Positions 13,286 through 52,924 of a stretch of 57,580 bases of DNA are shown one piece after another (position 1 is the stretch's first letter; each line of letters begins with the position of its first letter). Source of the DNA: a virus. Its lineage: Duplodnaviria; Heunggongvirae; Uroviricota; Caudoviricetes. Under the pieces are notes generated by a model that was given only the letters and a program-made list of their open reading frames with translations, made no database searches and was not told the origin of the DNA. The position numbers were made by a program, and so were the translations under genes. The stretch is from the IMG/VR virus record IMGVR_UViG_2529293084_000006; one strand, given 5' to 3'.

Positions 13286-13646
13286 TGGTTTTTCCCTCAT
13301 CATTTTTTGGGGGCTTAAAATCTCCTGCCGGGTTAGCAGCATTCACGCTTACCAGCATCTCATCCAGCCCTTCAACCGGATTCATATCCTCGAATGCGCG
13401 GGCTTCATTACGGCTCATCCATCCATCGGTAATAGCGAAGTGATAGAATTGCGCGCGCTCCTGCGGAGTTCCGCGTAAAAGCCCCGTCAGATTGAACCTA
13501 ACGTAATACCCGGCGGCTAACTCAGCGCGGGTAAACAAGCGACGGTTAAGCTCCTGCTCCCAGTTCGTTACCCACGGCATCATCGTGTAGCGGACAAACT
13601 GAATCGCCTGCGCAGAAATATTGGAGAATGTAACCAGGTGAATCAT
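13278..13646 (-). pseudogene. Portal protein C-terminal fragment (gene interrupted by the Mu-like insertion)
   Basis: 122-aa ORF; the frame ..VTFSNISAQ.. continues the N-terminal fragment ending ..INDLEKATF at 52920, so the two pieces reconstruct a ~415-aa HK97-type portal. Confidence 0.75.
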
Positions 13647-13815
13647 TTGATACCAACGAGGGTTTTAGTGAAAGGAGGTGAAATCACCTGTAAGATACTG
13701 AAATAAAACAGGTGATGTCTGGATGAGCGCTTAAAGTCTATTTGATACCGATTGTGCAATAATTAATCGTTTATTCTAAAATCGGCAAAACTTTTGATAC
13801 TGCGATCTCAACTTT
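13629..13815 (+). repeat. Mu-like left end with three transposase-binding repeats (L1-L3-like)
   Basis: TTTGATAC(C) at 13646, 13741 and 13793, i.e. about 17, 112 and 164 bp from the terminus, close to the Mu L1/L2/L3 spacing as I recall it; terminus begins TGTAACC. Confidence 0.6.
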
Positions 13816-13878
13816 TTAAAGCGTTTAAAACTTCATTAAATCTATATGGCAACTAACATACGGGCCAGCCTCGCCAAA

Positions 13879-14409
13879 CTAACCCGCTTTAGATTCTACC
13901 GGATTTGATTGCCTACTTGTCTCGGTTTTTTCCAAAATCTCTCTGACGCAATCGTCTGGCATATCTACAATCATCAACGCAGCCAGGCGCTTCCTGCCTT
14001 CTAGTTGTAATAAATCCTGGTTTTCTTTATCCAGCAGTGTCAGAACCGTCTCTACACCTTTGCGAGCAAGGAGATTGGTTAACTGTTCTCGTTCGTCTTT
14101 CGTAAGGAATGAAAGCATCTGTGTAAGTTGATCTCCCTTATCACCAGAACAACCAAAATTACCACAAATACCAACATCGTTTGGTGATTCACCCTTGCCC
14201 TCTTTAAGCCACTCAAGACTAACTCCTTCACTTTCAGAAATTCGTATAAGGATACTTTCTCTGGGGGCTGGTTGTGTTTGTCCTCCCTTGAAATAGCTGT
14301 TTAATGTGTTGATATTGATTCCCCACGCTCTGGCAGCTGCACTTCTTGAAGGGTAGCGCTTTGTAAGCATTCCAATACGTTCAATAACAGGTTCTTTTCC
14401 CTGCGACAT
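13879..14409 (-). CDS. Prophage repressor (Mu c-like position), HTH DNA-binding protein
   Basis: ORF 13879..14484 trimmed to ATG at 14409 (MSQGKEP..., RBS AGAGG); N-terminal helix-turn-helix; divergent from ner with a palindrome-rich operator region between. Confidence 0.6.
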   Translation of the reverse strand: MSQGKEPVIERIGMLTKRYPSRSAAARAWGININTLNSYFKGGQTQPAPRESILIRISESEGVSLEWLKEGKGESPNDVGICGNFGCSGDKGDQLTQMLSFLTKDEREQLTNLLARKGVETVLTLLDKENQDLLQLEGRKRLAALMIVDMPDDCVREILEKTETSRQSNPVESKAG

Positions 14410-14491
14410 AAAGATACCTCTTGGTGCTTTTCTAAGGAAAGGTTTCTTTCTATTTATCCAATTGAAAAATAAGGATAAAAGCAAAAATTAG

Positions 14492-14529
14492 CCAAAATAC
14501 CAAAAATACCTTGATTTGGTATTTTTGGT
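14492..14529. promoter_or_regulatory. Candidate operator: perfect 12-bp inverted repeat ACCAAAAATACC-7bp-GGTATTTTTGGT with an adjacent CCAAAATAC direct copy
   Basis: Read directly in the c-ner intergenic region. Confidence 0.45.
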
Positions 14530-14539
14530 GATGCATTAT

Positions 14540-14579
14540 TTACCCGTGCAGATATCCGCACGAATATCCGCGCGGGTAA
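14540..14579. promoter_or_regulatory. Second operator-like element: TTACCCG ... CGGGTAA arms enclosing direct repeats GATATCCGCA / GAATATCCGCG
   Basis: Read directly; 20-60 bp upstream of the ner start, where the early promoter is expected. Confidence 0.4.
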
Positions 14580-14599
14580 CTTTTTAGAATAGAGGAAGT

Positions 14600-14848
14600 A
14601 TGAGTAGAAGAGAAGTTTCAGATCACGATTGGCCGCCTGAAATCATCAAGGCGCGCTTACACATGGCTGGCTTATCACTGCGCTCTTTATCTTTAAAGGC
14701 TGGTTACAGCAGGGATTCGCTGAAAAGCGTATTACGTACTCCTTGCCGACCGTATCAGCAAATAATTGCTGATGCTCTTGGGGTATCGCCTGAAGAAATC
14801 TGGCCCAGTAGATACCAGGTTAAGAGCTATATGAGAAAGGCGTCATGA
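14600..14848 (+). CDS. ner: Ner-like DNA-binding early regulator
   Basis: 82-aa protein; C-terminal ..IIADALGVSPEEIWPSRYQ matches the Mu Ner / Nlp family motif (EVIWPSRYQ). Confidence 0.8.
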   Translation: MSRREVSDHDWPPEIIKARLHMAGLSLRSLSLKAGYSRDSLKSVLRTPCRPYQQIIADALGVSPEEIWPSRYQVKSYMRKAS

Positions 14849-14849
14849 T

Positions 14850-16940
14850 ATGTATGTCATTGCAAAAGAACTGATTGGCGCGCCCGGAATGCCTGCTACA
14901 ACAAAAGGTATTCGCCAGGCATTACAACGTTACGTACAAGGGAAAAGCTGTTGTTCCCGTCGTCGCTCAGGCTCTAAAGCAACTGAATACAGCATCGACT
15001 GTTTACCTGAAGTGACGCAGCAGGCATTACGTGAACGTTATGCCCTGCAACTGATGACGCAAAAAGCCGATGAATCACCGGCTCCGGTGGTGACAAAGGC
15101 CAGACGCTCATCTGACGTGGTTGATGCGGTGGAGGCATATCGCGGATCACCACAACTGATGGTCGAACGCCTCAATGCCCTGACTGAAAACCAGCGCCAG
15201 GTGGCTGATGCACGAATCGCGATCGTCAGCGAAGTGATGAAAGTCGCGCAACAACCCGGTTTCAGCTGCGCGAAGGCTATCCGGTTTATCGTTGACAACC
15301 TGGCACGTTCACAGCTGGACGAGCGCATTGTGGCAATGGTTGAGACGGCGAACGCCAAAAAGGGAAACAGCCGTGCGTTGAGTGAAATCACGCTGAAGCG
15401 ATGGATTGCGGCCTTTAACAAGGCACAGAACGCCGCTGAACGCCTGCTTTTACTGGCACCGGGTAAACGCCAGGAAATAAAAGCCGAAGATATTAACTGG
15501 CTGCCCGAATTTCTGGCGCAGTATCGCCAGTCAAACGGCCGACCAATGACCGAGGCTTACGAGGATTTTGTCGCTGAATGGCAGCACCGGCACGCTGATG
15601 AGCCTTATATGCTCGATATCATGCCGTCTTATGACACCATTCGCCGCGCAATGAAGAAACTGCCGGAAGTGGTGAAACAAAAAGGCCGGGTGACCGGCAG
15701 TGAATACCGCCAGCTTGAGGGATTCACGCGCCGCGACTGGTCCAGAATGCCGGTGAATTATGTCTGGATTGGTGACGGTCACGGCATGAAGCTGAAATGC
15801 GCGCACCCGGTTCACGGGCGGCCATTTGCACCGGAAGTAACCTTTGTTATCGATGGCGGCACGCGCTTTGTGGTGGGCTGGAGCCTTGACCTGGCTGAAA
15901 ATGTTTTCGCCGTAGCCGGTGCCATACAGCACGGCATTCGCCATCACGGCAAACCGTTTCTGTATTACTCGGATAACGGTTCCGGGGAAACCGCCGACAT
16001 CCTGGATAAGGAGATTGTGGGGATACTGCCACGACTGGGGATTAATCACCCGACAGGGATTGCCGGTAACCCGCAGGGACGGGGCATTATCGAACGGCTT
16101 AACCGCACATTACCGATGCGCATAGCCCGTAAATACCGCACCTATTTCGGGAAAGGTGCAGATCGCGAGACGTTACGCAAAACCAACCGCGATTTACGCT
16201 CGGCATTTACCGCCCTGCAACAGGGCAAACGGCTGAACGCCCGGCAGCAGTCAGCGATGCGTGATTTACCGTCCTGGGCTGAACTGATTGATGCCATTCG
16301 TGATGGTGTTGAGTGGTACAACAACCGGCCGCACGATGAATTACCGGTGAAGCCGAACGGCAAGCATTACAGCCCGGCGGAGTTCAGAAAAAAACGCCTG
16401 GCGGAAGAGGACACGGAAATTGAATGGCTGTCCGATGTTGAGCTGCGGGATATGTTCCGGCCGATGGTGGAACGCCCTGTTAGACGCTGTGAAATACGCT
16501 GGCTGAATAATATTTACTACGCGCCCGAGCTGCGTGACGAGCATGGCCGTAAGGTGCTTATCAGCTATGACATTCATGATGCCGAACGAATTATCGTACG
16601 TCGCCTGGATGGCAGCGTGATTTGCGAGGCGGTATGGGACGGCAATAAACGCGAAGCCTTCCCGGTCAGCGCGGAATACTACAAACAGCAGCAACGCCTT
16701 AAAGGCATGCGTAAACGCGCAGAGGAAAAAATCCGTGATGCCGAGGATGAGGTGGTCAACGTGCTGGAGCACAAGCCGCAGGAGCCCTGGCTGGAAAACA
16801 TCTATCGCCCGGTAGGTAATACGGTGGCCGTTCAGCAACCTGCCGTTGATGATGAGCCTGATGAAGAATACGAGCGTAATTTCCAGCGGGGATTGCAGTT
16901 GCTGGAAGCGAAATTAAAAGAAAATGACCCGCTGGCCTGA
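14850..16940 (+). CDS. A: Mu-type DDE transposase A
   Basis: 696-aa ORF immediately after ner and before the B ATPase; N-terminal DNA-binding region resembles MuA; size as MuA. Confidence 0.85.
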   Translation: MYVIAKELIGAPGMPATTKGIRQALQRYVQGKSCCSRRRSGSKATEYSIDCLPEVTQQALRERYALQLMTQKADESPAPVVTKARRSSDVVDAVEAYRGSPQLMVERLNALTENQRQVADARIAIVSEVMKVAQQPGFSCAKAIRFIVDNLARSQLDERIVAMVETANAKKGNSRALSEITLKRWIAAFNKAQNAAERLLLLAPGKRQEIKAEDINWLPEFLAQYRQSNGRPMTEAYEDFVAEWQHRHADEPYMLDIMPSYDTIRRAMKKLPEVVKQKGRVTGSEYRQLEGFTRRDWSRMPVNYVWIGDGHGMKLKCAHPVHGRPFAPEVTFVIDGGTRFVVGWSLDLAENVFAVAGAIQHGIRHHGKPFLYYSDNGSGETADILDKEIVGILPRLGINHPTGIAGNPQGRGIIERLNRTLPMRIARKYRTYFGKGADRETLRKTNRDLRSAFTALQQGKRLNARQQSAMRDLPSWAELIDAIRDGVEWYNNRPHDELPVKPNGKHYSPAEFRKKRLAEEDTEIEWLSDVELRDMFRPMVERPVRRCEIRWLNNIYYAPELRDEHGRKVLISYDIHDAERIIVRRLDGSVICEAVWDGNKREAFPVSAEYYKQQQRLKGMRKRAEEKIRDAEDEVVNVLEHKPQEPWLENIYRPVGNTVAVQQPAVDDEPDEEYERNFQRGLQLLEAKLKENDPLA

Positions 16941-16947
16941 AATAAAA

Positions 16948-16977
16948 AAATAACCCGAGCGGCGACTCAGGTTATTT
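16948..16977 (+). terminator. Hairpin in the A-B intergenic region (possible attenuator)
   Basis: AAATAACCCGAG-CGGCGA-CTCAGGTTATTT, about 11 bp stem with one mismatch, followed by T-rich sequence. Confidence 0.3.
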
Positions 16978-17011
16978 GATTAAACAAGGTATCAAATGAG
17001 AGGTTAATAAT

Positions 17012-17944
17012 ATGACTGATATTAACGATGTAATCAAGACCATTGATGAACTTATTGATGGCGGCGTACTGACGCAGTATGCCATCGCCAGAGAGGCGGG
17101 AATTTCCGACGGCACATTATCGGCTTTCCGCAAGGGGAAATATAAAGGCGATAACGCCGCTGTGGCTGCTTCCCTGCGTTCCTGGTATGAAAACTGGAAT
17201 AAACAAAGCGCACTGCCGGAACCGCCGCAGTTTGTGGAAACGCAGACAGTTCAGGAGCTGCGCGCACTGTTTCAGGCGGTTCGCCTGATGGGCTGTATTA
17301 ACGTCATTGTGGGCGTGCCGGGGGTAGGTAAAACGGCCACCGCCCGTAATTACTGCCAGGAGCAACCAAACACCTGGATGATCACCCTGTCACCCGCGCA
17401 CTCCAGCGTCACGGAGTGTCTGCTGGAGCTGGCCGATGCGCTGGGGATTGATTACACCCGCGCGAACAAAGGGGCATTATCCCGCGCCATCCGCCGTCGC
17501 CTGATGGGAACGCGTGGACTGGTGATTGTGGATGAGGCGGATCATCTTGGTATTGACGGTCTGGAGCAACTCCGGGCAATTCAGGACGCCACGGGGATCG
17601 GGATGGTGCTTATTGGTAACCCGCGCGGATTGTTTAAAGGTGGACGCCGCGCCTTTGATGATTTATCGCGCCTGTTCAGCCGTCTTGCCCGTACAAAACA
17701 ACTTCGCAAGGCCAAAAAGGCGGATGTGCTGGCCATTGCCAGGGCATGGGGTATCAGTGGTGAGGCCGAGCTGGCCGTCATGCAGGCTATCGCTGAAAAG
17801 CCGGGAGCGTTACGCGTTCTGACACATACGCTTAACCAGGCGTGGCTCACCGCCAGCGGTGAAGGTGCGGCGCTGACAGAAAAACATATTAATGCGGCCT
17901 TTAAAGAGGTTTATACCAACCCTGAATTACTCTCACAGGTGTGA
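17012..17944 (+). CDS. B: Mu B-type AAA+ ATPase (transposition target DNA activator)
   Basis: 310 aa; Walker A GVPGVGKT; N-terminal HTH; follows the transposase. Confidence 0.85.
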   Translation: MTDINDVIKTIDELIDGGVLTQYAIAREAGISDGTLSAFRKGKYKGDNAAVAASLRSWYENWNKQSALPEPPQFVETQTVQELRALFQAVRLMGCINVIVGVPGVGKTATARNYCQEQPNTWMITLSPAHSSVTECLLELADALGIDYTRANKGALSRAIRRRLMGTRGLVIVDEADHLGIDGLEQLRAIQDATGIGMVLIGNPRGLFKGGRRAFDDLSRLFSRLARTKQLRKAKKADVLAIARAWGISGEAELAVMQAIAEKPGALRVLTHTLNQAWLTASGEGAALTEKHINAAFKEVYTNPELLSQV

Positions 17945-17946
17945 TT

Positions 17947-18168
17947 ATGGCGGTATTTTATATTCCTGATATTTACGGACGCTTTTACCTGGTTAATTTC
18001 GATAACGTGAAGGTGATTTCACTGGCCGAAAATAAAGAATGTGGCGATTTACTTTTTGAATTTAATGACCGCACACGAATGGTGATATCTGCCGGACTTG
18101 ATCGCGAAGGTGCGACAGAAGTTTACAGCGGAATATGCCGTTCTGTTGGTGCGAAACAAGTCAGCTAA
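17947..18168 (+). CDS. Small early protein at the Mu kil position
   Basis: ORF 17941..18168 trimmed to ATG at 17947 (73 aa); first gene after B as kil is in Mu; assignment by position only. Confidence 0.3.
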   Translation: MAVFYIPDIYGRFYLVNFDNVKVISLAENKECGDLLFEFNDRTRMVISAGLDREGATEVYSGICRSVGAKQVS

Positions 18169-18180
18169 ATGAGGTGTTAT

Positions 18181-18435
18181 ATGAATATGCAATCCTGCGG
18201 TAACAAAATGAATTTATTCGACTCCCTGAACAGCGCGCGCCGTCTGACCGAACTTGCCGGTGCGGTACTGGAACGCAGTAAGCGCTATCCGCAACGTTTT
18301 GCACTGAAAACCACGCCGCCGGCAGGCAACGTGCAGGGAACCGGTGAAATTGAAATCACCATACAGACCAACGGCCTGCGCCGCCGTGTGAAGGCCACCC
18401 GCATCAGCGGCTGCACGGTTTACTGGGAGGTGTGA
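18181..18435 (+). CDS. Hypothetical early protein
   Basis: ORF 18169..18435 trimmed to ATG at 18181 with GAGGTG RBS. Confidence 0.4.
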   Translation: MNMQSCGNKMNLFDSLNSARRLTELAGAVLERSKRYPQRFALKTTPPAGNVQGTGEIEITIQTNGLRRRVKATRISGCTVYWEV

Positions 18436-18436
18436 G

Positions 18437-18718
18437 GTGAAACGAAATCTCATTGCATGGGCGTGGTCGAGTGGTCTTATTGAGTTTGGTTACGTCCTGC
18501 CAGAAGGTGCATTGCCGATAGTTGCCGGAAAGCCTGCCACGGTACGGCATGTGATTGAGGTTATGGCGCGTCATGGACGTGATGAACAGAAGCAGTTACT
18601 GGTTCCGGGGATACCGGAAGCGGTGACGGAGGAAGAAGCCTTTAATGCCATGATTCGGTTCTGCCGTGAGGTCAGACGCCGGGTCAGTTATCCAAACAGA
18701 ACGAGGACCAGAGGATGA
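18437..18718 (+). CDS. Hypothetical early protein
   Basis: 93-aa ORF, GTG start preceded by GGAGG. Confidence 0.4.
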   Translation: MKRNLIAWAWSSGLIEFGYVLPEGALPIVAGKPATVRHVIEVMARHGRDEQKQLLVPGIPEAVTEEEAFNAMIRFCREVRRRVSYPNRTRTRG

Positions 18719-18987
18719 GTAAAGTCGTACGCATTATTTTCGAATACAAGGAAGACGTTATCTGTAAAAACTCTGATGGCAGTGCGCACATGGGGGTAAG
18801 TCTGGATATACGGTCAACCGGAATAAAGAAGAAAGATAATGGACCCGCCACGATTTTTGGAGTGGTTATGCTCGCGGAAAGCAGAAACTTCGCAGAGCTT
18901 GTGGCAATGAAAGCCAGTGCATTCATGAAAGACAGGGGCATGGCTTCCGGGGTTATTAACGGTAATGAATTTAATCAGCAGGGGTAA
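18715..18987 (+). CDS. Hypothetical early protein (tandem paralog 1)
   Basis: Begins MSKVVRIIFEY...; the next gene begins MSKVRVIFEF... Confidence 0.45.
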   Translation: MSKVVRIIFEYKEDVICKNSDGSAHMGVSLDIRSTGIKKKDNGPATIFGVVMLAESRNFAELVAMKASAFMKDRGMASGVINGNEFNQQG

Positions 18988-18991
18988 TTCC

Positions 18992-19285
18992 ATGAGCAAA
19001 GTACGCGTTATTTTTGAATTTAACCACGTAATGCATGAAGTAAAGCCAGCCGGTAATGATAGTCAGGAAATCACGGAGGGGGTTACTGCCACTGTAAAAG
19101 TCGAACGTGATACGGAGAACAGACCGACAGGCCCATGTGATGTTTATGCGCAAATTCTTAAATATCACAGCCCCACAATTATTCAGTTTCTGACAGATGA
19201 ACTACAGGGTTCCATGCAGGCCATGGGGGTAAGCAGCTCCGTTGAACGCCGTTCTGTTCAGAACGGACCAGATACATTGCAATAA
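18992..19285 (+). CDS. Hypothetical early protein (tandem paralog 2)
   Basis: ORF 18965..19285 trimmed to ATG at 18992; N-terminus paralogous to 18715..18987. Confidence 0.45.
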   Translation: MSKVRVIFEFNHVMHEVKPAGNDSQEITEGVTATVKVERDTENRPTGPCDVYAQILKYHSPTIIQFLTDELQGSMQAMGVSSSVERRSVQNGPDTLQ

Positions 19286-19296
19286 GGAAAAACAAA

Positions 19297-19827
19297 ATGG
19301 CAAAACGCGTTACAAAATTAAAGGCCGCAGCCGAGGCTGCACCGCAGACCCGCGAAGAGGTCAGCCGCGATATCCGCACCCTGGGCGATATTCAGCGAGA
19401 GGCGCTGCGGCTGGAAACGGCGATGAATGATGAAGTGGCAGAAATCACCGCCCGTTATACGCCGCAGATTGAAAACCTTAAAAAAGAAATCAAAGTGCTT
19501 TTTAAGGGGATTCAGGACTGGTGCAAAACCAACCGAGATGAGCTGACGAACGGAGGCAAAACAAAAACTGCCAATCTGACCACCGGCACGGTGTCATGGC
19601 GGCTGGGAAATCCATCATGCAGCGTCAGCCGTGATGTGGAAGGCGTGATTGAAATGCTGCGCCGTATGGGGCTTGAGCGATTCATCCGCACGAAAGAGGA
19701 AGTGAACAAGGAAGCCGTCCTGGCGGAGCCGGATGCGGTGAAAGGCATTGCCGGTATAAAGGTGAATAAAGGCGCTGAAAGTTTTTATGTCGAGCCTTTT
19801 GAACAGGACGCCGGACTGAATAAATAA
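19297..19827 (+). CDS. gam: Gam-like host-nuclease inhibitor (DNA-end-binding)
   Basis: 176 aa; matches Mu Gam as I recall it along its length (ANRDELTNGGKxKTANLxTGxVSWR, LGLxRFIRTKxExNKEA). Confidence 0.8.
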   Translation: MAKRVTKLKAAAEAAPQTREEVSRDIRTLGDIQREALRLETAMNDEVAEITARYTPQIENLKKEIKVLFKGIQDWCKTNRDELTNGGKTKTANLTTGTVSWRLGNPSCSVSRDVEGVIEMLRRMGLERFIRTKEEVNKEAVLAEPDAVKGIAGIKVNKGAESFYVEPFEQDAGLNK

Positions 19828-19924
19828 CACCACATTAAATCTTTAAATATCACATCGTTTTAATTATGGCGCTCGCGTCAGGGGACTGCCTGCGCCTGAA
19901 AGCTGAAAATAAGGAATCGGAAAC

Positions 19925-20467
19925 ATGGCATATTTTTATTTCAAATTAGACATAGTGTACACAAATAAATATTTAACCGAATATCAGCGGGATGTTTTAC
20001 CGCTACGCAACAGTATTCTTCGGGCATTACTGAAAAATACAGGCGCTGCCGGATTGCGCTTAAAGCCGTTCGCCATGGACGTAATCAGTGAGTTTTATTT
20101 TTCTGGTTCTCTGCCTGCGGGCTGGCGTAAGCGCGATGATGTGGCTTTTATCGGGGGCGGACCGTGCTTTATTGCCAGACCTGATGAGTCATGCCCTGAA
20201 GGTCCGGCGATTGCCGCAATGGTTGAAGCCGCTGAACGCGAGTTAAGAAAGCGTCCTGATTTCCTTGTCTGGCTCTGTGAAAAGCTGGGGGTAATGAGAA
20301 TCCCCTCCATGTTTAACACGGACTCCTGGTGGACCCCTTCGTTCTCCCGTGATGCCCTGTGCGTGGTGTTTAAAGTGGGCGCTTATGGCAGGGAAATAAA
20401 CGGGTGTATTCCTGAAGAATGCCAGGAAATTAAACATTCTGAATATGTGGCGCTGACGGAGGAATAA
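19925..20467 (+). CDS. Hypothetical early protein
   Basis: 180-aa ORF with RBS. Confidence 0.4.
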   Translation: MAYFYFKLDIVYTNKYLTEYQRDVLPLRNSILRALLKNTGAAGLRLKPFAMDVISEFYFSGSLPAGWRKRDDVAFIGGGPCFIARPDESCPEGPAIAAMVEAAERELRKRPDFLVWLCEKLGVMRIPSMFNTDSWWTPSFSRDALCVVFKVGAYGREINGCIPEECQEIKHSEYVALTEE

Positions 20468-20470
20468 TTC

Positions 20471-21004
20471 ATGATTGATGCAAAAGTGCTTGAAGGGGTT
20501 AAAAACTGGCTGAGTATTTACGGGCGTCTGACCTGCGGAGTTCTGGCTGAAAAAATGAATATGCCGCCATCCTCGATGGTTTATTTTCTGCGTGATGCGG
20601 TTGATGCCGGGGTGCTGACGGAATGTAACGGTTTTTATGATATTCCGCGTCCCCGCCCGGTGCAGCCGGTTCGTCGCAAATGCAGCCAGGAGTCTGCGGC
20701 TGATGATGTTCAGTGGTGCAGCTTCAGAAAATCCCTGCCGTGGATTGAGGGGCATGATATTCCGTCGATGGCGTGGGAATTTGCTCAGGGCATACTGACC
20801 TGTGAAACCGTTTATGTGGTGGCTGAAGTTGATGAGCAGGCCATGAAAGAAGGTGTACCCCAGTTTGTGATGGCGTATATCGACATACGCCTGGGTGTCA
20901 TTATCTGCGGTTTAAGCGGCTGGAATATCACCGGACATGTTCTGCGTTACCTGATTGTTGACCGGACAGCGGCACCGGCCGCGATTTCTGCGGAGGTGGC
21001 GTAA
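20471..21004 (+). CDS. Hypothetical early protein, possible N-terminal winged-helix
   Basis: 177-aa ORF with GGAGG RBS. Confidence 0.4.
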   Translation: MIDAKVLEGVKNWLSIYGRLTCGVLAEKMNMPPSSMVYFLRDAVDAGVLTECNGFYDIPRPRPVQPVRRKCSQESAADDVQWCSFRKSLPWIEGHDIPSMAWEFAQGILTCETVYVVAEVDEQAMKEGVPQFVMAYIDIRLGVIICGLSGWNITGHVLRYLIVDRTAAPAAISAEVA

Positions 21005-21519
21005 TGTTCTTTAAAACATCGAACCCTGCCGCGCTGGCCGCGTGGCAAAAATATCAGCAGGACTGCCAGAAAGTTAAGGATGAGGCAAAGCGCCTTGAGG
21101 CTGTGCTGAATGTTGATTGCCGGTCGGTATTTGTATCCGATATCAGTGGCTTTTGTTTTAAGGGGCTGAGTTTTACGGATGACAAATATCCTTTTCATCG
21201 TGATTTATGGCGAAAACCAACTGCGTCGAATGGCTGGAGCTGCACACCGCGCACGTCACGTATCCCTAAAGCCCTGCGTGTTGCCTCTGATGAACTGAAT
21301 ATTCTGTGGTTTGAATATTCGCCCGTCACGTATGCCAGAACCGATGCGCTGTTGTTCTGGCTGGGCATTGACTTCTCAGCAATATTGCATGGTCCCGTGA
21401 AGTGGTTCTGCGTTGACGATGTGATTTATCTCCAGTGCGGCGTAAAACCCGCAAAACAGAGAATGACCGAAATTCTGCCTGATGAGTTTTATGCTGCCGA
21501 AAAGCGAGTCAGGGGGTGA
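21004..21519 (+). CDS. Hypothetical early protein
   Basis: 171-aa ORF with GGAGGTG RBS. Confidence 0.4.
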   Translation: MFFKTSNPAALAAWQKYQQDCQKVKDEAKRLEAVLNVDCRSVFVSDISGFCFKGLSFTDDKYPFHRDLWRKPTASNGWSCTPRTSRIPKALRVASDELNILWFEYSPVTYARTDALLFWLGIDFSAILHGPVKWFCVDDVIYLQCGVKPAKQRMTEILPDEFYAAEKRVRG

Positions 21520-21522
21520 TGC

Positions 21523-22382: not shown

Positions 22383-22396
22383 CGGGAGGTGAATGC

Positions 22397-22747: not shown

Positions 22748-22759
22748 ACAGGCAGGTGA

Positions 22760-23095: not shown

Positions 23096-23285
23096 TCTAC
23101 CCGCTGGATGGGCGCGGCCACTAATGGCCAGGAAGCATCATTTTTTTAAAACAGGCGAAAATATCAGTATATGTGGACGGTGGTTATATCTGGCTCATAA
23201 TCGCGAGCCGGATACATTTGAAAGCCCTGATGACTGTGCCGAATGCCGCAGAAGAGTGAATAAGGAGAAAGATAATGGACAATAG
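23088..23285 (+). CDS. Small Cys-containing protein (possible zinc ribbon)
   Basis: 65 aa with ICGRW...CAEC; GGAGG RBS. Confidence 0.35.
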   Translation: MNSLPAGWARPLMARKHHFFKTGENISICGRWLYLAHNREPDTFESPDDCAECRRRVNKEKDNGQ

Positions 23286-45402: not shown

Positions 45403-45953
45403 CCCTGACCCCGCATCAGCGCGCCCTGTTGCAGTTGCTGCCTGACGGGCTGGCATGGGATAAGCGGCCGTCATCCGTTCTTGCGGCTTTGTGCCTGGGC
45501 CTCAGTCATTCCACGGAGCGTGTTTCCTGGACCGGTAACCAGATGCTGGCAGAACGTTTTCCTGATTCATCCCGTCTGCTGCTGGAAGACTGGGAGCGTT
45601 ATCTGGGGTTACCGGAATGTGATATGACCGGCGCAACCATTCAGGAACGTCAGCGTTATGCAGGGAATAAATACCGGATGAAACCCTCTCTTAACCGTGA
45701 ATTTTATATCCGGTTTGCGGCAGAGTTTGGTTATGAAATAGATATTCAGCCATCACCGGATTCACAGTGGGTCAGTATTGTCACGATAAACAGTGAAACC
45801 GGCTACCGGAATATGAATGTGCTGGATGATATTCTCACCCCGCTGCGTATTTATGAGGGTGGTGCGCTGGAATGTATTCTGAACCGTTATAAGCCTGCAT
45901 GGCAGACGTTTATTTACGTGTATGCAAACAGTCACAAAGAGGAGAATATTTAA
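45393..45953 (+). CDS. Tail protein, Mu gp48-like
   Basis: 186 aa; homolog of 293..877. Confidence 0.6.
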   Translation: MAVTLTPHQRALLQLLPDGLAWDKRPSSVLAALCLGLSHSTERVSWTGNQMLAERFPDSSRLLLEDWERYLGLPECDMTGATIQERQRYAGNKYRMKPSLNREFYIRFAAEFGYEIDIQPSPDSQWVSIVTINSETGYRNMNVLDDILTPLRIYEGGALECILNRYKPAWQTFIYVYANSHKEENI

Positions 45954-46864
45954 TGTTCCATGTTGATAATAATTCCGGCGTGGCGAATATGCCTGAACTG
46001 GCTCCGGCGCAGAGTAATACCACCACCTGGTTTACCGAAGGTGACGGACAAAAAGGTATCAGCTGGATTGGTCAGGACTGGCTGAATATTCTCCAGGCCG
46101 AACTGCTGAATATTCTGGCTGAAGCCAGTATTCAGCCGGATAAGGCGCAGTTAAACCAGCTTACGCTGTCCATTAAAGCCATTATCGCTGCGAATGCCTT
46201 TTCCCGGAAAAACAACCTGAAAGAAATTGCTGATGCCGGTGCGGAAGCCCAGCGTCTGGCCCGTGGTTATCTTGGTCTGGGGACGCTTGCCACAAAAAAC
46301 AGTCTTGGTCCCGCTGACGTTAATGCCCTGGCGAAGGATCAGAACCTTGCCGACCTGGAGAATGCGGAAACCGCCCGTAATAATCTGGATGTTTACAGCA
46401 GGAGCGAAGGTGATAACCGTTACCTGCGCAGGGACCAGAATGGCGCGGATATCCAGGACAAAGGAACCTTTATCGATAACCTCGGTTTACGGGAAACGGT
46501 AAATAAGGCTGCTGATGCCCTGCCATCGGCTGGAACCGCCGTGGCAGCAAACAGACTCGCCACCCCAAGAAATATTAATGGTGTTCCTTTTGACGGAACG
46601 CTGGATATCAACATCACGTCAGGAATGACGCAGTCAACCGCAGATGGCCGGTATGTACAGAATGTTCAGCTTGGAGCACAGAGCTATCATTCACCCGGAG
46701 GCAATGAAATGTCATGGAATTACAGCGCACCTTCCGGTTGTATGCTTTCCGGTATTAACGTGCAGGAAACCGGCTCCCGGTCTGCGGACAATATCGGTGG
46801 GGTCTATTATCGCCCGGTTCAGATTTATATTAATAATACCTGGAGAACGGTAAGTTCAGTGTAA
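45953..46864 (+). CDS. Tail fibre protein (constant N-terminal part plus variable C-terminus in the current orientation)
   Basis: Track ORF 45899..46864 trimmed to ATG 45953 (AAGAGGAG RBS); the coding sequence crosses the left gix site at 46470. Confidence 0.7.
   Translation: MFHVDNNSGVANMPELAPAQSNTTTWFTEGDGQKGISWIGQDWLNILQAELLNILAEASIQPDKAQLNQLTLSIKAIIAANAFSRKNNLKEIADAGAEAQRLARGYLGLGTLATKNSLGPADVNALAKDQNLADLENAETARNNLDVYSRSEGDNRYLRRDQNGADIQDKGTFIDNLGLRETVNKAADALPSAGTAVAANRLATPRNINGVPFDGTLDINITSGMTQSTADGRYVQNVQLGAQSYHSPGGNEMSWNYSAPSGCMLSGINVQETGSRSADNIGGVYYRPVQIYINNTWRTVSSV
46470..46495 (+). promoter_or_regulatory. Left gix-like recombination site TTATCGATAACCTCGGTTTACGGGAA
   Basis: About 22/26 identity to the Mu gix sequence as I recall it; central TC dinucleotide. 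Confidence 0.65.
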
Positions 46865-46898
46865 ACCACAGAAAAGGGTGCTGAATGCACCCTCTGAA

Positions 46899-47420
46899 TT
46901 ATTCCGGTTTTTCCGGCCAGGGAATCGCCTGGTAATGCCCCTCACTGGCAATATCATTAAAGTGCATTTCTTTAAGCTGTCGGATATACGCCATCCAGCG
47001 CGTCAGCTGTAATTTATTTTCATCGCTAATCATGTCCAGTTTTAATTCTGTTTTCCAGTCATCCACGGTTTCGTTGGCTTCCTGGAGCAGCGATGAGCGA
47101 CGCTTTTCAGCAACCGTCTTCCAGTTTACCGGCACCTTTGATATCAGGCCATCAGAAAACTGCCAGTTACCGTCAATATTCACACCTTCCGGCAGTTCGT
47201 CCACTTCAACAACAGTAAAACCTGCCGGATATAAAGCAGAGACATCTTCAGCAACAGAGCAGATAATACCCGTTACAGGCGAAATACAGAGTTTGTATTT
47301 CTTTGTAAAAAGCGGGATAGATTCATAAAAATCCCTTCCGTCCTCACTCTGGAAATACTGAACATCCTCACCATAGGGTTTGTCTTTCGGGTAATATCGT
47401 TTGACATTAATCAGTTGCAT
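46899..47420 (-). CDS. Tail fibre assembly protein (chaperone for the alternative fibre)
   Basis: Track ORF 46899..47471 trimmed to ATG 47420 (MQLINVKRYYP...); inside the invertible segment, downstream of the alternative fibre C-terminus on the same strand. Confidence 0.65.
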   Translation of the reverse strand: MQLINVKRYYPKDKPYGEDVQYFQSEDGRDFYESIPLFTKKYKLCISPVTGIICSVAEDVSALYPAGFTVVEVDELPEGVNIDGNWQFSDGLISKVPVNWKTVAEKRRSSLLQEANETVDDWKTELKLDMISDENKLQLTRWMAYIRQLKEMHFNDIASEGHYQAIPWPEKPE

Positions 47421-47541
47421 AAACATCACCATGTAAATCAATGATAAAAACAGGAATAATACTATCGCCATATACAGGCAATGCTTGTCTGAAATAACGC
47501 ATATTTCAGATGCTGGCTGCTGTGTGCTATGCCCCCGTTAA

Positions 47542-47895
47542 TTAAATACTTGCAGCGGATACCCAATGCCCATTAATACAATATTGTATCTGTCTGTAAT
47601 AAACACGGTCATCACCACCACGCATTTCCCAGTCTCCGTCAGTCTTAAAACCGGTAATCACATTTCCTGATGACAGGGAGTAATTATATTCCAGTCCGCC
47701 GCTTAATGCCTGCGCTCCCAGTCTTACCCCTGTAACATAACGCTGATTGGCCGTTGATTCCGGCATTCCTGACGTAATGTTTATATCCTGCGTGCCGTCA
47801 AAGGCGACACCATTGATTCTGCGGGCATTTGCCAGCCTGCTTGCTGCAACAGCCGTACCGTTTGATGGCAGGGCATTCGCGGCCCTGTTTACCGT
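47542..47895 (-). CDS. Alternative tail-fibre C-terminal coding segment, promoter-less in this orientation
   Basis: Reverse-strand frame homologous to the + strand fibre C-terminus (..NGTAVAA.RLA..R.INGV.FDGT.DINITSGM..); the track ORF 47542..47766 is its distal part; 5' limit approximate. Confidence 0.55.
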   Translation of the reverse strand, partial: TVNRAANALPSNGTAVAASRLANARRINGVAFDGTQDINITSGMPESTANQRYVTGVRLGAQALSGGLEYNYSLSSGNVITGFKTDGDWEMRGGDDRVYYRQIQYCINGHWVSAASI

Positions 47896-47921
47896 ATCCC
47901 GTAAACCGAGGTTTCAGGGAT
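47896..47921 (-). promoter_or_regulatory. Right gix-like recombination site, inverted relative to the left site
   Basis: Reverse complement ATCCCTGAAACCTCGGTTTACGGGAT shares the core with the left site. Confidence 0.65.
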
Positions 47922-47975
47922 GCCGTATATCTACTTTAAAAGGCTTTTCCACCTCTTTTTAAGGAAGGTAAATAC

Positions 47976-48536
47976 ATGCTGATTGGCTATATACGCGTAT
48001 CAACAAATGACCAGAACACCGGTTTACAAAGAAATGCGCTGGAATGTGCAGGATGTGAGCAGATTTTTGAAGACAAAATGAGTGGTAAAACGACACAGCG
48101 GCCGGGACTGAAGCGGGCACTGAAGAAACTAAAACCCGGTGACACGCTGATGGTCTGGAAACTGGACAGGCTGGGGCGCAGTATGCGCCACCTTGTTGCG
48201 CTGACAGATGAATTACAGCAACAGGGGATAAATTTTCGTAGTCTTACTGACAACATTGATACGTCAACCCCCATGGGGCGCTTCTTTTTTCACATAATGG
48301 GTGCGCTGGCAGAAATGGAGCGTGAATTAATTGTCGAACGGACACGGGCTGGTCTTGCAGCTGCCCGTGAAAGGGGACGAACCGGCGGCAGACCCCGCCG
48401 TCTCACGCAGGAACAATACGAGCAGGTCGGGCGTTTACTGGCCGGGGGTGTCAGTCGAAGACAGGTGGCACTTATTTTTGATATCGGTCTTTCAACCCTT
48501 TATCGTTATTATCCTGCGAGCGTTTCGGAAAAATAA
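47976..48536 (+). CDS. gin: Serine recombinase / DNA invertase (Gin/Hin/Pin/Cin family)
   Basis: 186 aa; N-terminal catalytic region (LIGYIRVSTNDQ, MVWKLDRLGRS) and C-terminal HTH; directly beside the invertible segment. Confidence 0.9.
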   Translation: MLIGYIRVSTNDQNTGLQRNALECAGCEQIFEDKMSGKTTQRPGLKRALKKLKPGDTLMVWKLDRLGRSMRHLVALTDELQQQGINFRSLTDNIDTSTPMGRFFFHIMGALAEMERELIVERTRAGLAAARERGRTGGRPRRLTQEQYEQVGRLLAGGVSRRQVALIFDIGLSTLYRYYPASVSEK

Positions 48537-48635: not shown

Positions 48636-50675
48636 ATGACGTCCAAATGGGTTCAACTATCATCAATGCCCGGAAACTTTACTGTTAAAGTTTCCGGTGG
48701 TACAGCGGCATTTCTTGAGGCTCCCTTTCCTCCGGCCGAAACAAAAGGAGGAATGACATTTGCTGACTGTCTCATCAGTTTTAATACACGGGATTGCCTG
48801 TGGGTAAGGCCAGTATCCGGTGATCCGAGTGTGGAAATTACCGGAGCGGGTATTGGTGCGGTCATTCCGTTAAGTGCTGATGTTGCCGGTACTGCTGAAC
48901 CGTCAGACTGGGATAATGCTGAAACACATACCCGTCCGTCAGGAAATGAAACTGCTTCCAGCTCCCCTTCCTGGTATTACGTGGTGGTTCTTGCTGGTCA
49001 GTCAAACGGTATGGCTTACGGTGAAGGTCTGCCACTGCCGGAGACATATGACCGCCCCGAACCGCGTATTATGCAGTTAGCCCGTCGCAGTACAGTCACG
49101 CCGGGAGGTAAAGCCTGTCAGTATAACGACATCATTCTGGCCGACCACTGTCTGCATGATGTGCAGGATATGAGTGGAAAAAATCACCCGAAAGCGGATG
49201 TGGCTAAAGGGCAATATGGCACCGTGGGTCAGGGGCTTCACATTGCCAAAAAACTGCTGCCGTTTATTCCGGCAGATGCGGGGATTCTGCTGGTTCCCTG
49301 CTGCCGTGGTGGTTCTGCATTCACGGCGGGTGCTGACGGCACGTACAGTGACAGCACGGGTGCTTCAGAGGACTCAGCCCGCTGGGGTGTGGATAAGCCG
49401 CTGTATAAGGACTTAATCAGCCGGACAAAAGCGGCACTGGCGAAGAACCCGAAAAACCGCCTGCTTGCTGTGGTGTGGATGCAGGGCGAGTTTGATATTG
49501 ATGCGAAGCCGACGGAGCATTCTGCGCTGTTTCTGGCGATGGTGGAAAAATTCCGCGCAGACCTGGCTGAACAGGCGGAACAGTGTACCGGTGGCAGTGC
49601 TGCTGGCGTTCCGTGGATTTGTGGCGATACCACGTATTTCTGGAAACAGAAAAATGAACCAGCATACCAGGCAATCTATGGCGGCTACAAAAACAAAACA
49701 GATAAAAACATTCATTTCGTTCCATTAATGACAGATGAAAATGGCGTGAATGTACCCACCAACAATCCGGCAGAAGACCCGGATATTGAATCCATTGGTT
49801 ATTACGGCTCAACGTGGCGTAACAGTGCCGCTACCTGGACATCTGCGGACCGGGCCAGCCATTTCAGTGCCTGGGCGCGCCGGGGTATTATTTCTGACCG
49901 TCTGGCCACGGCTGTTCTGACTCATGCAGGGCGAACCACAGTAAAAGCCGATGTTCCATCTTCTGAAACTGAAGCACCAGTGCCGTCACCTTCAGAAACT
50001 GAAGCAGTAACCACAACACTGCTGTCTTACCGTGTCAGTGAGTCAGAAGGAAATCTGAAAGCCCAGGGCTGGGAGCCGGCTGGCGGTAAAGCTGAAATTA
50101 TCAGTGATGCAGGAGGCACAGGTGGTAAGGCAATGAAACTGACCAAGGAAACAGGTAAATCATCCTGGTATCTGGATCATGATGCCGGTACTGGTGCTGA
50201 ACTGCTGAAAAATGGTGGTTTAATCAGTTGTCGTTTTAAAGTACCTGGCGACCTGGTGGCAAACCAGTATGTCATGGCGCTGTACTGGCCGGTTTCCTCT
50301 CTGCCGCAGGGTGTCACCCTGACAGGGGATGCAGGGAATAATCTGCTGGCATCGTTCTACATCCAGACAGACGCAAAAGACCTGAATGTGATGTACCACA
50401 ATGCAAAAGTGGCAACAAATAACCAGAAACTGGGAACCTTTGGTGCATTTGATAATGAATGGCATACGCTGGCCTTCCGTTTTGCAGGAAATAACAGCCT
50501 TCAGGTTATTCCGGTTATTGATGGTCAGGATGGTGCCGCGTTTACCCTGACGCAGTCACCAGTAGGAACTTTCCCGGTGGACAAACTCCGCGTAACGGAT
50601 ATCACCAAAAATGCAACTTACCCGGTGCTGATTGACAGCATTGTGGTGGAAGTGAAAAAAGCGGTAACAGAATAA
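48636..50675 (+). CDS. SGNH-hydrolase family esterase, likely a sialate O-acetylesterase of the prophage NanS-p type
   Basis: 679 aa; GQSNG block (VVLAGQSNGMAYGE) typical of SGNH hydrolases; size and multidomain layout resemble prophage esterases of enterohaemorrhagic E. coli; family assignment is from motifs only. Confidence 0.6.
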   Translation: MTSKWVQLSSMPGNFTVKVSGGTAAFLEAPFPPAETKGGMTFADCLISFNTRDCLWVRPVSGDPSVEITGAGIGAVIPLSADVAGTAEPSDWDNAETHTRPSGNETASSSPSWYYVVVLAGQSNGMAYGEGLPLPETYDRPEPRIMQLARRSTVTPGGKACQYNDIILADHCLHDVQDMSGKNHPKADVAKGQYGTVGQGLHIAKKLLPFIPADAGILLVPCCRGGSAFTAGADGTYSDSTGASEDSARWGVDKPLYKDLISRTKAALAKNPKNRLLAVVWMQGEFDIDAKPTEHSALFLAMVEKFRADLAEQAEQCTGGSAAGVPWICGDTTYFWKQKNEPAYQAIYGGYKNKTDKNIHFVPLMTDENGVNVPTNNPAEDPDIESIGYYGSTWRNSAATWTSADRASHFSAWARRGIISDRLATAVLTHAGRTTVKADVPSSETEAPVPSPSETEAVTTTLLSYRVSESEGNLKAQGWEPAGGKAEIISDAGGTGGKAMKLTKETGKSSWYLDHDAGTGAELLKNGGLISCRFKVPGDLVANQYVMALYWPVSSLPQGVTLTGDAGNNLLASFYIQTDAKDLNVMYHNAKVATNNQKLGTFGAFDNEWHTLAFRFAGNNSLQVIPVIDGQDGAAFTLTQSPVGTFPVDKLRVTDITKNATYPVLIDSIVVEVKKAVTE

Positions 50676-50821
50676 AAAAATCCCGCCGGTCATGATATGG
50701 CTGGCGGGAGCTACCTAACCCATAAAGGAAAATAAAAATACTCCCGAAGGAGTGGTTATCAGTCGCTTCGATGTTTTTACCCGATAACGAATTATGTAGT
50801 CAATATCAAAGGTAAGGTTAT

Positions 50822-51004
50822 ATGACATTCGTTCATACAATGCTGCTTTATTTCTGCGCTGTGGTCAGTGCGTTATATCTGGTGAGCGGCGGTTATAAGG
50901 TCATCAGAAATTATATTCGCCGTAAAATTGATGATGCGGCAGCTGAAAAACTCAGTAAAACAGCACAGGCACCGTCATCCCCAAACGACCCGACCCCGCT
51001 CTGA
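50822..51004 (+). CDS. Small membrane protein, unknown function
   Basis: 60 aa; one N-terminal TM helix then a charged tail. Confidence 0.35.
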   Translation: MTFVHTMLLYFCAVVSALYLVSGGYKVIRNYIRRKIDDAAAEKLSKTAQAPSSPNDPTPL

Positions 51005-51039
51005 TAACGGGGCAATATACCTGCAAAAGGAGAATATTC

Positions 51040-51285
51040 ATGCCAGAGATTAAAGGCACGGTTACTGAAGAGCTTGTCAAACAGGCACTTTATTCTGAAG
51101 AAGTGAACCGCGTGCTGAAGGCGCAGGTTCGCAAGGATTTTGAGGCACAAATCGACGCATATGTTGATGAAGTGCTGGCCCGAATGGTTGGCCGTTCTCC
51201 GGCTGAAAACAGCACGGAAAATGATCCTCAACCCGTAGAGCAACCAGAGCCGGTTCAGCCCGGAACTGACGGTACTATGATGTAA
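51040..51285 (+). CDS. Small acidic protein, unknown function
   Basis: 81 aa; acidic, Pro/Glu-rich C-terminus; GGAG RBS. Confidence 0.35.
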   Translation: MPEIKGTVTEELVKQALYSEEVNRVLKAQVRKDFEAQIDAYVDEVLARMVGRSPAENSTENDPQPVEQPEPVQPGTDGTMM

Positions 51286-51836
51286 CAATACCGACCGGCA
51301 GGTTTCCCTGCCGGGTGAGTTTGTTAATGCACGTTTTGTGTATTTTCCCTCCTGGGAGAACAGGCAGGACATATCAGCATCCTGAAACAGGAAGCATTTT
51401 TGGGTTTGTATGTCTTGCCATTTTGAGATCGAGAACGGCGATAGATGAGCTGTAAGGGAGTCTTACAGGCAGGGCAAACAGGCTCTTTCATCCATGATAA
51501 AGATCTCCTTTTTATGCATCTCTGCTTTACAGGAGACTGGGGAATATCATAGGATACGCCACGAGCTCGAAGTAAAGCATTGATGCAAAATTGTCTAAAT
51601 CGGCCCAGAATAGTTCGCGCTATCTGGGTCGCTCTTTATGTATGTAGTATCCCATTGATTTGAAACATACTACATATACGCGCGATCCTACCTTCACTAT
51701 ATAAAAAGTCAATAAAATGATCATTTTATGATCGTTTTCACCACCTAACTCTTCGTTTTCTTTAAGTAAATAATCACCTACCTGAATCATTGTTGATGAC
51801 TTTTCAATCTATTTGTTGTATCAATTAAACAAATCG

Positions 51837-51861
51837 AATCGATCGTTTTTGTCGATCGATT
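51837..51861 (+). promoter_or_regulatory. GATC-containing palindrome AATCGATCG-7bp-CGATCGATT about 45 bp upstream of com
   Basis: Read directly; two Dam sites in the arms. In Mu, mom expression depends on Dam methylation of GATC sites upstream of its promoter. Confidence 0.45.
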
Positions 51862-51904
51862 GCATGAGAAAGGCATCAACAACAAAGCAGGAGGTTATGC
51901 GGCC

Positions 51905-52105
51905 ATGTATCGAAACATACGGTGCCGACACTGCAATAAGCTACTGGCACGGGCCAGTTTCAGTTATCTGGAAGTAAAATGTCCGCGCTGTAAAACCCTC
52001 AATCAAATCACATCTCCGAGCGCCACAGAGCACCCCACATACACAAGGAAATCCTGTCGTGGGGAACAGAAAGCAAGTCACATCCCGAATCATCAGCACG
52101 CCTGA
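51905..52105 (+). CDS. com: Com-like zinc-finger translational activator of mom
   Basis: Track ORF 51860..52105 trimmed to ATG 51905 (AGGAGG RBS); [10 protein letters not shown]...[10 protein letters not shown] matches the Mu Com zinc finger as I recall it; overlaps the mom start. Confidence 0.7.
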
Positions 52106-52796
52106 ACTTATTCGCTATAACGACAATATCGTTGGTTATGGCTCCCGTGAGTTGCGGGTTGAGACAATAAGTTGCTGGCTGGCCAGACTGGTCATCGTCA
52201 ATAAACATTACAGCCACCGTTTCGTAAATAACTCCTACCTTCATCTGGGCATATTTTCAGAACGGGAACTTGTTGGCGTAATGCAATGGGGTTACGCCCT
52301 TAACCCAAACAGTGGTGCACGCGTCGTAACGGGTACGCAGAACCGAGAATATATGGAGCTTAACCGGCTATGGCTGCATGACTGTATGCCGAGAAACTCC
52401 GAATCAAGGGCAATCAGTTACGCGCTCAAGCTAATCAGGCAGCTTTATCCGCAGGTACAGTGGGTTCAGTCGTTTGCAGATGAGCGTTGTGGCTGTCTTG
52501 GTGTCGTGTATCAGGCAAGCAATTTTGATTATGTAGGCAGCCATGAATCAATATTCTATGAACTTGATGGCGAGTGGTATCACGAGATTTGCAGGAATGC
52601 CATTAAACGAGGCGGACAACGAGGTGAACATCTGAGGGCTAATATTGACAGAGCCAATGTTCATAAGTTCCGACAGTTTCGTTACATCCGGTTTCTGAAC
52701 AAGAGGGCCAAAAAACGCCTCAACACAAAGCTATTCAAAGTCCAGCCTTACCCAAAACCACAAACAGTTAAAACTGGTTTGAAAGAGAGTGAATGA
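52059..52796 (+). CDS. mom: Mom-like DNA modification protein
   Basis: 245-aa ORF overlapping com, the last gene before the right end, as in Mu. Confidence 0.65.
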
Positions 52797-52840
52797 GCGC
52801 TTAAAAACTCATTCTAAAACTCAAAAGAAAAGCGCCGATT

Positions 52841-52924
52841 TAGTATCAAATAAGTTGCGTATCGGCGTTTTTCAGCAGTATCAAATGAAATGCAAATCGG
52901 TATCAAAAAAATCGCCGCGCTATA
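52841..52924 (+). repeat. Mu-like right end with three inverted transposase-binding repeats (R1-R3-like)
   Basis: GTATCAAA at 52841, 52878 and 52899; the last 30 bp align in inverse orientation to the left end (TTGATACC at the same offset). The terminus reads ..GCGCTATA, not the canonical ..CA. Confidence 0.55.

Follow-up and report, generated by a model that had tools for sequence, protein, structure and literature searches.

The 57,580-bp sequence IMGVR_UViG_2529293084_000006, a Caudoviricetes record in the IMG/VR collection, is referred to below as the window. It contains a Mu-like element of 39,296 bp that closely resembles prophage Sp18 of Escherichia coli O157:H7 strain Sakai and that interrupts the portal gene of a second prophage related to Shigella phage SfV. 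In the open reading frame (ORF) map, leftward phage morphogenesis genes occupy 1..13646 and 52920..57580, and a mostly rightward block of about 39 kb stands between them. An earlier note on this DNA, made from the sequence alone, had proposed that a 39.3-kb Mu-like prophage splits the portal gene of a lambdoid prophage, and the split is confirmed by comparison with an empty site in the E. coli O157:H7 strain FRIK2455.

Window positions 1..13628 correspond to positions 6873..20500 of the FRIK2455 locus (L002) with 1 mismatch (99.993% identity), and window positions 52925..57580 correspond to 20497..25152 of the same locus with 0 mismatches (100% identity). The two flank alignments share exactly 4 bp on FRIK2455, AGAA, which is the target-site duplication and is present in the window as a left copy (13625..13628) and a right copy (52925..52928). 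FRIK2455 reads ...TTGGAGAAGGTGGC... without interruption, and its portal gene is intact. The boundaries of the element are therefore exact to the base, at 13629 and 52924. The left junction reads ...ATATTGGAGAA/TGTAACCAGG (in a longer readout, ...ATATTGGAGAA/TGTAACCAGGTGAATCATTTGATACC), and the right junction reads ...CGCCGCGCTATA/AGAAGGTGGC (in a longer readout, ...GGTATCAAAAAAATCGCCGCGCTATA/AGAAGGTGGCTTTTTCGAGG).

Removal of 13629..52924 alone leaves 4 surplus bases, which results in a frameshift and an open frame of 339 amino acids (aa). When the element is removed together with one AGAA copy, a continuous frame containing ...DLEKATFSNISAQ... is obtained. The earlier note had predicted the correct join, ...DLEKATF/SNISAQ..., and had expected it to follow from removal of the segment, which is insufficient without the deletion of one AGAA copy. 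The break point falls at Phe293/Ser294. The rejoined portal has 408 aa, is identical to the FRIK2455 portal (WP_000923141.1), and matches the Pfam family Phage_portal (PF04860) with 329.5 bits from profile position 2 to 321 of 321 (residues 46-373), in a single stretch that crosses the junction, so that the two fragments form a continuous portal of the HK97 family as anticipated. In the window, the 5' fragment (codons 1-292) lies at 52929..53804 and the 3' fragment (codons 293/294 to 408 plus the stop codon) at 13278..13628, both on the minus strand. The gene is thus in two parts, an N-terminal one of 292 residues and a C-terminal one of 115 residues, and the latter lacks its own start codon. 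Mu-end DNA, and not portal DNA, supplies the final two codons of the ORF at 52920..53804 and the first six codons (MIHLVT) of the ORF at 13278..13646.

Of 5,426 complete E. coli genomes, 880 contain the rejoined 600-bp site without a break, always within a gene annotated as "phage portal protein," and 117 records had at least 99% identity. The same split portal in relatives free of the Mu-like element, a possibility raised in the earlier note, was not encountered; related genomes carry the portal intact. Megablast searches of the 5,426 genomes with a 1-kb probe across each junction returned no record covering at least 80% of either probe. The halves of the probes matched separately at 99-100% identity, with the phage-flank halves matching "phage portal protein" genes of O157:H7 strains and the inner halves matching elements annotated as Mom, Mu transposase, or "prophage Sp18, Mu-like phage." A junction 30-mer was likewise not found in the species-representative genome collection.

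Ends and transposition genes of the Mu-like element

The left end of the element (13629..13800, plus strand) begins with 5'-TGTAACC, and the right end (52843..52924, minus strand) terminates in ...GCGCTATA-3'. Comparison of the ends and repeat counting revealed the octamer TTTGATAC three times on the plus strand within the first 172 bp, at 13646, 13741, and 13793 (offsets of 17, 112, and 164 from the tip), and three times on the minus strand within the last 82 bp, at 52900..52907, 52878..52885, and 52843..52850 (offsets of 17, 39, and 74). The window contains 8 sites of this octamer, compared with 1.54 expected, and none of 100 shuffled sequences reached 8. Six of the eight fall in the two element ends in inverted orientation, and these inverted repeats are putative transposase-binding sites, several per end as in Mu-like phages.

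Both ends could be read in seven copies of the Sp18 type, all of which show the termini TGTAACC...GCGCTATA and a 4-bp duplication: AGAA in the window, TAAA in Sakai, AGAA in Z887, AGAA in PV0838, TGAC in 2015C-4944, CATC in the Shiga toxin 2c (Stx2c) phage of JNE082796, and AAAG in strain 10153. The seven sites are the SfV-like portal gene, sorM, mhpD, a DUF2534 gene, a cupin gene, the Stx2c phage, and a lambda-type portal gene; an eighth Sp18-like copy, of which the left end alone was seen, lies in a prophage lysis gene. The same termini and the 4-bp duplication at seven different insertion sites indicate that the Sp18 family is mobile. A 5-bp duplication with one mismatch was ruled out. The base on the right side is A in all 7 copies, and its left-side counterpart is G, T, C, T, C, T, and A; being constant while the left counterpart varies, the extra right-hand A belongs to the element.

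These ends depart in two respects from those of Mu proper. The left terminus is TG, and on the right all seven copies end in TA-3' (...TATA-3'), so the pattern 5'-TG...CA-3' is absent, and the duplication is 4 bp, as seen at the empty site and in 7 of 7 two-ended copies, rather than 5 bp. Of the Mu-type ends proposed in the earlier note, the repeat layout stands, and the right terminal dinucleotide and the length of the duplication do not. The 4-bp duplication is a difference from Mu at the level of the family and no defect of the copy in the window. In GenBank record LC727881.1, repeat regions of 4 bp are labeled "duplication due to insertion," and a literature search found no published direct statement of a 4-bp duplication in Sp18-type phages.

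The inner element carries, in order, c, ner, A, B, gam, gemA, a gene for a Mor/C-family activator, lysis genes, genes for a Mu-type terminase and portal, F, G, I, T, tail genes, an invertible fiber segment, an invertase gene, com, and mom, which is the gene order of Mu. In total, 55 of the 57 ORFs of Sakai Sp18 are present at full length with 60-100% identity. All genes for transposition, regulation, lysis, head, and tail are full length, and these core functions share 89-100% identity with those of Sakai Sp18; for ECs_4991, a short alternative tail-fiber fragment included in this count of 55, the counterpart is weak (about 37% identity). Pfam matches in the element include Mu-transpos_C, HTH_Tnp_Mu_1, Phage-MuB_C, Phage_Mu_Gam, GemA, Mor, Portal_Mu, Mu-like_gpT, Mom, and Resolvase. 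The complete Mu-like element described in the earlier note is thus upheld and belongs to a known type, Sp18.

Transposase A (14850..16940, plus strand; 696 aa) matches Mu-transpos_C with 63.8 bits (cutoff, 21.7) and HTH_Tnp_Mu_1 with 28.7 bits (cutoff, 23.3), and it shares 22% identity with MuA in a full-length pairwise alignment (E value, 4e-11). In the alignment with MuA, Asp309 and Asp375 fall on the GDG and DN motifs, and Glu415 is matched to the conserved Glu in the integrase core of avian sarcoma virus, which suggests that these three residues are catalytic. The best matches of A among sequences of solved structures were retroviral integrase cores, and MuA was not returned in that search at an E value of ≤0.001, so the kinship of A with MuA is shown by Pfam and the direct pairwise alignment. 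Weak NCBIfam matches to IS481 and IS3 transposases were also found. The adjoining gene encodes the transposition ATPase B (17012..17944, plus strand; 310 aa), which matches Phage-MuB_C with 88.6 bits, also matches AAA_22, and is 48% identical to MuB.

Origin and consequences of the nested arrangement

The best explanation of these observations, with a probability of about 95%, is that DDE transposition carried an Sp18-type Mu-like phage into a chromosome of the E. coli O157:H7 type, where it landed in the portal gene of an SfV-like prophage already resident there. Both ends of the element were joined to a target that had been cut at AGAA with a stagger of 4 bp, within codons Phe293/Ser294 of the portal gene (408 codons), and repair duplicated these 4 bp. 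The insertion was presumably carried out by the A transposase and the MuB-like B ATPase. The outer prophage would now be without a functional portal and hence unable to package DNA. The insertion appears to be recent and strain specific.

Several points weigh against this explanation or parts of it. The right end is TA-3' and not the canonical CA-3', a concern that is offset by its presence in all seven copies. An accessory gene of the inner element, the homologue of ECs_4996 (a hypothetical protein of 154 aa in Sakai), is split into two frames. In addition, the activity of the inner phage and the inactivity of the outer phage are predictions from the gene sequences.

It is also conceivable, though regarded as unlikely, that the target was not hit by chance and that Sp18-type phages favor the DNA of resident prophages, or portal genes, and so disable competitors. 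Among the 10 Sp18-like Mu phages reported from 13 closed genomes of CC119 Shiga toxin-producing E. coli, 6 are inserted in mobile elements, and Mu-like phages were found within several Shiga toxin (Stx) phages (PMC10132054). The copy in strain 10153 lies in another portal gene, and that in strain UTME-4 lies in a prophage lysis gene. However, most of the listed copies, which were not de-duplicated, lie in ordinary chromosomal genes (sorM, mhpD, garP, rihA, ydhK, and ybbA), and the two portal genes belong to different families and have no common target sequence beyond 4 bp. In addition, survivorship, with insertions in useful genes being lost, explains the excess in dispensable prophage DNA as well as or better than a targeting bias does. 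The proposal that Sp18-type phages land in resident prophages more often than expected from the share of the chromosome that prophages occupy draws on the 6 of 10 CC119 copies and three further insertions in prophage genes, two of them in portal genes, and it is considered improbable. Such a bias could arise, for example, if the B protein favored the AT-rich, silenced, and untranscribed DNA of prophages and, if true, would mean that transposable phages systematically disable coresident prophages.

Somewhat less probable still is that the inner element is a dead, immobile remnant. One of its accessory ORFs is frameshifted, its right terminus is not CA-3', and its A protein is only 22% identical to MuA. 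However, the core genes are all full length, the TA-3' end is regarded as the functional end of the family because it is common to copies at seven different sites, and Sp18 has been reported to be predicted intact, not circularized, not inducible by mitomycin, and efficiently packaged (PMC2669165). With all core genes and both ends kept, the inner phage probably retains the capacity for transposition and packaging, in agreement with the intact appearance ascribed to it in the earlier note. An assembly artifact, in which a Mu copy was stitched into the wrong repeat-free context as might be feared for phages that replicate by transposition and for a junction found in no complete genome of the collection, is highly improbable because both junctions are precise to the base, the element is flanked by a direct target duplication of the length found in all seven two-ended copies, which a misjoin would not yield, and the inner and outer elements have no nucleotide similarity that could mislead an assembler.

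The outer prophage was defective before the insertion. The homologue of gpP in the outer prophage is frameshifted, with residues 1-69 and 84-346 in different frames (tblastn; 2886..3949, minus strand), and the tail-fiber gene is truncated (1..289, minus strand). FRIK2455, without the insertion, is annotated with both of these defects in identical form, which is why they are placed before the insertion. The split portal is thus an additional defect of the outer prophage and not its first, and the insertion, to which the earlier note ascribed the probable defectiveness of this prophage, was not required for it. Since the prophage already had a frameshifted baseplate gene and a truncated tail-fiber gene, the insertion was probably neutral for the host.

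The window provides a clean, base-resolved example of nested prophages, with little importance beyond strain-level genome annotation. Prophage-calling software would merge the nested pair into one oversized "phage" or mis-score both. The inner element also shows that a transposable phage, which seems to be active, is in circulation in a background of the O157:H7 type.

Further genes of the inner element and the outer prophage

The leftmost gene of the inner element encodes a c-like repressor (13879..14409, minus strand), which is 100% identical to Sakai ECs_4943 and matches phrog_3037, a transcriptional repressor. Promoter and terminator scans at both junctions showed no excess over shuffled sequence, and the idea that read-through from this repressor gene drives the outer head genes was therefore dropped. 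The Ner-like DNA-binding protein (14600..14848, plus strand; Pfam HTH_35) is 100% identical to ECs_4944. Downstream of B, an early accessory region (17947..24077, plus strand), delimited by Sp18 comparison, Pfam, and phrog matches, includes the genes for Gam (19297..19827; Pfam Phage_Mu_Gam) and GemA (23568..24077; Pfam GemA). Within it, a cassette at 22071..22747 contains two ORFs of 103 and 130 aa that match phrog_6925 and phrog_6158, with function unassigned. The cassette is absent from Sakai Sp18, which has the 61-aa ECs_5772 in its place, and it looks like a swappable unit. No Pfam, PADLOC, or NCBIfam match was obtained for the two ORFs.

The late genes, identified by Pfam and Sp18 comparison, are on the plus strand. 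The Mor/C-family late activator (24147..24572) is followed by a lysozyme (24644..25144) and an Rz-like endopeptidase (25179..25607). Packaging and head genes, with head-tail genes up to 36279, occupy 25820..36279 and include those for the large terminase (27207..28871), the Mu-type portal (28871..30460), F (30444..31775), G (31897..32370), the protease/scaffold (32547..33671), and the major head protein gpT (33671..34618). In other Sp18-like copies, the annotation pipeline PGAP lists a "tRNA-OTHER" in the gap that separates head genes F and G, e.g., at L004 17792..17879 (minus strand). ARAGORN and Rfam scans of the whole window found no tRNA or Rfam match, so a "tRNA-OTHER" at about 31775..31897 is unsupported here. 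The tail genes (36276..46864), assigned by Sp18 comparison, encode the sheath (36276..37775), tube (37784..38149), tape measure (38767..40842), DNA circulation protein (40829..42178), gpP (42162..43286), baseplate proteins (43276..45953), and tail fiber (45953..46864).

An invertible host-range segment (46478..48536) was recognized by Sp18 comparison and by its inverted repeats. An imperfect inverted repeat of 179 nt, with arms at 46478..46656 and 47735..47913, flanks the fiber assembly region (fiber assembly gene, 46899..47471, minus strand; alternative fiber end, 47545..47913, minus strand) beside a Gin-like, resolvase-type invertase (47976..48536, plus strand; Pfam Resolvase). The host specificity region of Sp18 has been described as invertible (PMC2669165).

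Between the invertase and com/mom lies a cargo region (48636..51790), assigned by Sp18 comparison, Pfam, and phrog matches. It begins with a 679-aa protein (48636..50675) that contains a sialate O-acetylesterase (SASA) domain and DUF6645, followed by a DUF1378 ORF (50822..51004) and a DUF826 ORF (51040..51285). Lambdoid Stx phages have the same order in the nanS-p cassette that lies downstream of stx (PMC10462455), and this nanS-p-like gene order suggests that the cargo may be traded between phage types. A DUF1737 N-terminal domain was not among the Pfam matches of the 679-aa protein, NCBIfam had no family for this protein, the repressor, or the cassette ORFs, and PADLOC found no defense system match among the cargo and cassette proteins. 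The frameshifted ECs_4996 homologue (51327..51790, minus strand) is the sole disrupted gene of the inner element. The com gene (51905..52105, plus strand) was assigned by Sp18 comparison, and mom (52059..52796, plus strand) matches Pfam Mom with 259.5 bits.

The tail and head module of the outer prophage lies at 1..13277 and continues at 53794..57580, and its genes are on the minus strand unless otherwise stated. From the FRIK2455 annotation, the module encodes YmfQ (293..877), baseplate J (868..1926), gp46 (1913..2338), baseplate V (2338..2886), the frameshifted gpP-like baseplate protein, a DNA circularization protein (3946..5274), tape measure (5335..7170), tube (7581..7937), sheath (7937..9433), tail terminator (9596..10156), head closure protein (10634..11044), major capsid protein (11443..12672), and HK97 prohead protease (12683..13285). 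Position 11630 is the sole base that differs from FRIK2455 over 18.3 kb of the outer prophage, and as a result the major capsid gene has Cys at codon 348, compared with Phe in FRIK2455. Beyond the portal are a small ORF (53794..53955), the large terminase (53952..55685), a P27-family small terminase (55682..56176), an HNH endonuclease (56302..56652), and an iss-like lipoprotein gene on the plus strand (57178..57471).

The virion module of the outer prophage is of the SfV type, with an HK97-type head and a contractile Mu-type tail. The early and lysis region of the FRIK2455 prophage, which corresponds to DNA outside the window, is lambda-like, with an XRE repressor, RusA, an antitermination protein, and a lambda-family holin. 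The outer prophage therefore appears to be lambdoid in architecture only, as judged from FRIK2455, and the earlier description of it as lambdoid does not extend to its SfV-like virion. In FRIK2455, the prophage adjoins a tRNA-Thr gene next to proA, which we take to be thrW, the attachment site of SfV. The gpP proteins of the outer and inner elements are about 30% identical. A blastn comparison found no nucleotide similarity between the two elements, and hence their two Mu-type tail gene sets are not substrates for recombination.

Comparison with known phages

Shigella phage SfV (NC_003444.1) is 97.5% identical to the outer prophage over all of window 1..13628. The copy in the window differs from SfV in its frameshifted baseplate gene, truncated fiber gene, and split portal.

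Prophage Sp18 of Sakai (NC_002695.2, 5040971..5079729) aligns with nearly the whole inner element in three blocks of 96.5, 97.8, and 98.2% identity and has the same gene order, the same termini, and a 4-bp duplication. Sp18 is inserted in sorM in Sakai, whereas the element in the window is inserted in a prophage portal gene. Mu-like prophages occupy strain-specific sites in O157:H7 (PMC7430833). The two also differ in length (39,296 bp here versus about 38.75 kb), in the replacement of ECs_5772 by the two-ORF cassette, in a divergent alternative tail-fiber segment (47412..47733), and in the frameshift of the ECs_4996 homologue.

Phages of this type have been found inside other prophages. In GenBank records LC727881.1 and LC727895.1, which correspond to the CC119 study, Sp18-like phages with about 95% identity to the inner element lie in Stx prophages under the feature "region of the inserted Bacteriophage Mu-like phage," and the 4-bp duplication CATC of LC727881.1 was confirmed in the sequence. 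These CC119 cases place the same phage type inside a lambdoid prophage, but the outer phage there is an Stx-converting lambdoid phage and the target gene is another one, whereas the outer phage here is SfV-like. In strain 10153 (NZ_AP027191.1), a lambda-type gene annotated as "phage portal protein" is interrupted by an Sp18-like element and is present as two pseudogene fragments, one N-terminal and one C-terminal; that portal, encoded by a 2.3-kb gene, is of an unrelated family and belongs to a siphovirus-type lambdoid prophage. The 10153 copy (L010 2589..3623) has another repressor/ner region, with helix-turn-helix genes of 612 and 267 bp, and a nearly identical left end, which suggests swapping of the immunity region within the Sp18 family. 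In strain UTME-4, an Sp18-like element borders on a prophage lysis gene that is truncated and has a terminase gene as its neighbor. The insertion in the window is thus a further instance of a documented event. The kind of event, both phages, and even the 4-bp duplication are already on record, and only the junction in the window is new relative to the collections searched.

Bacteriophage Mu (NC_000929.1) resembles the inner element in its overall order from c/ner/A/B to gin/com/mom, in its B protein, in its 5'-TG left end, and in its insertion at many different sites. Both have three putative transposase-site repeats per end, and the spacing in the inner element (17/112/164 and 17/39/74) resembles the L1-L3 and R1-R3 layout of Mu. 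In contrast, A is highly diverged from MuA and has its best sequence matches among solved structures in retroviral integrase cores, the right terminus is CA-3' in Mu, and the target duplication of Mu is 5 bp. The end repeat is TTTGATAC in the inner element, whereas ACGAAA-type repeats, presumably the MuA sites, are visible in the ends of Mu. The inner element also has extra cargo between gin and com and almost no nucleotide similarity to Mu. The Sp18 family therefore departs from the Mu paradigm in its 4-bp duplication, its TA right dinucleotide, and its highly diverged transposase, and rules based on "TG...CA plus 5 bp" would miss or mis-delimit Sp18-type elements. The inner element works like Mu but belongs to a distinct Sp18 lineage that lacks two features of Mu proper.

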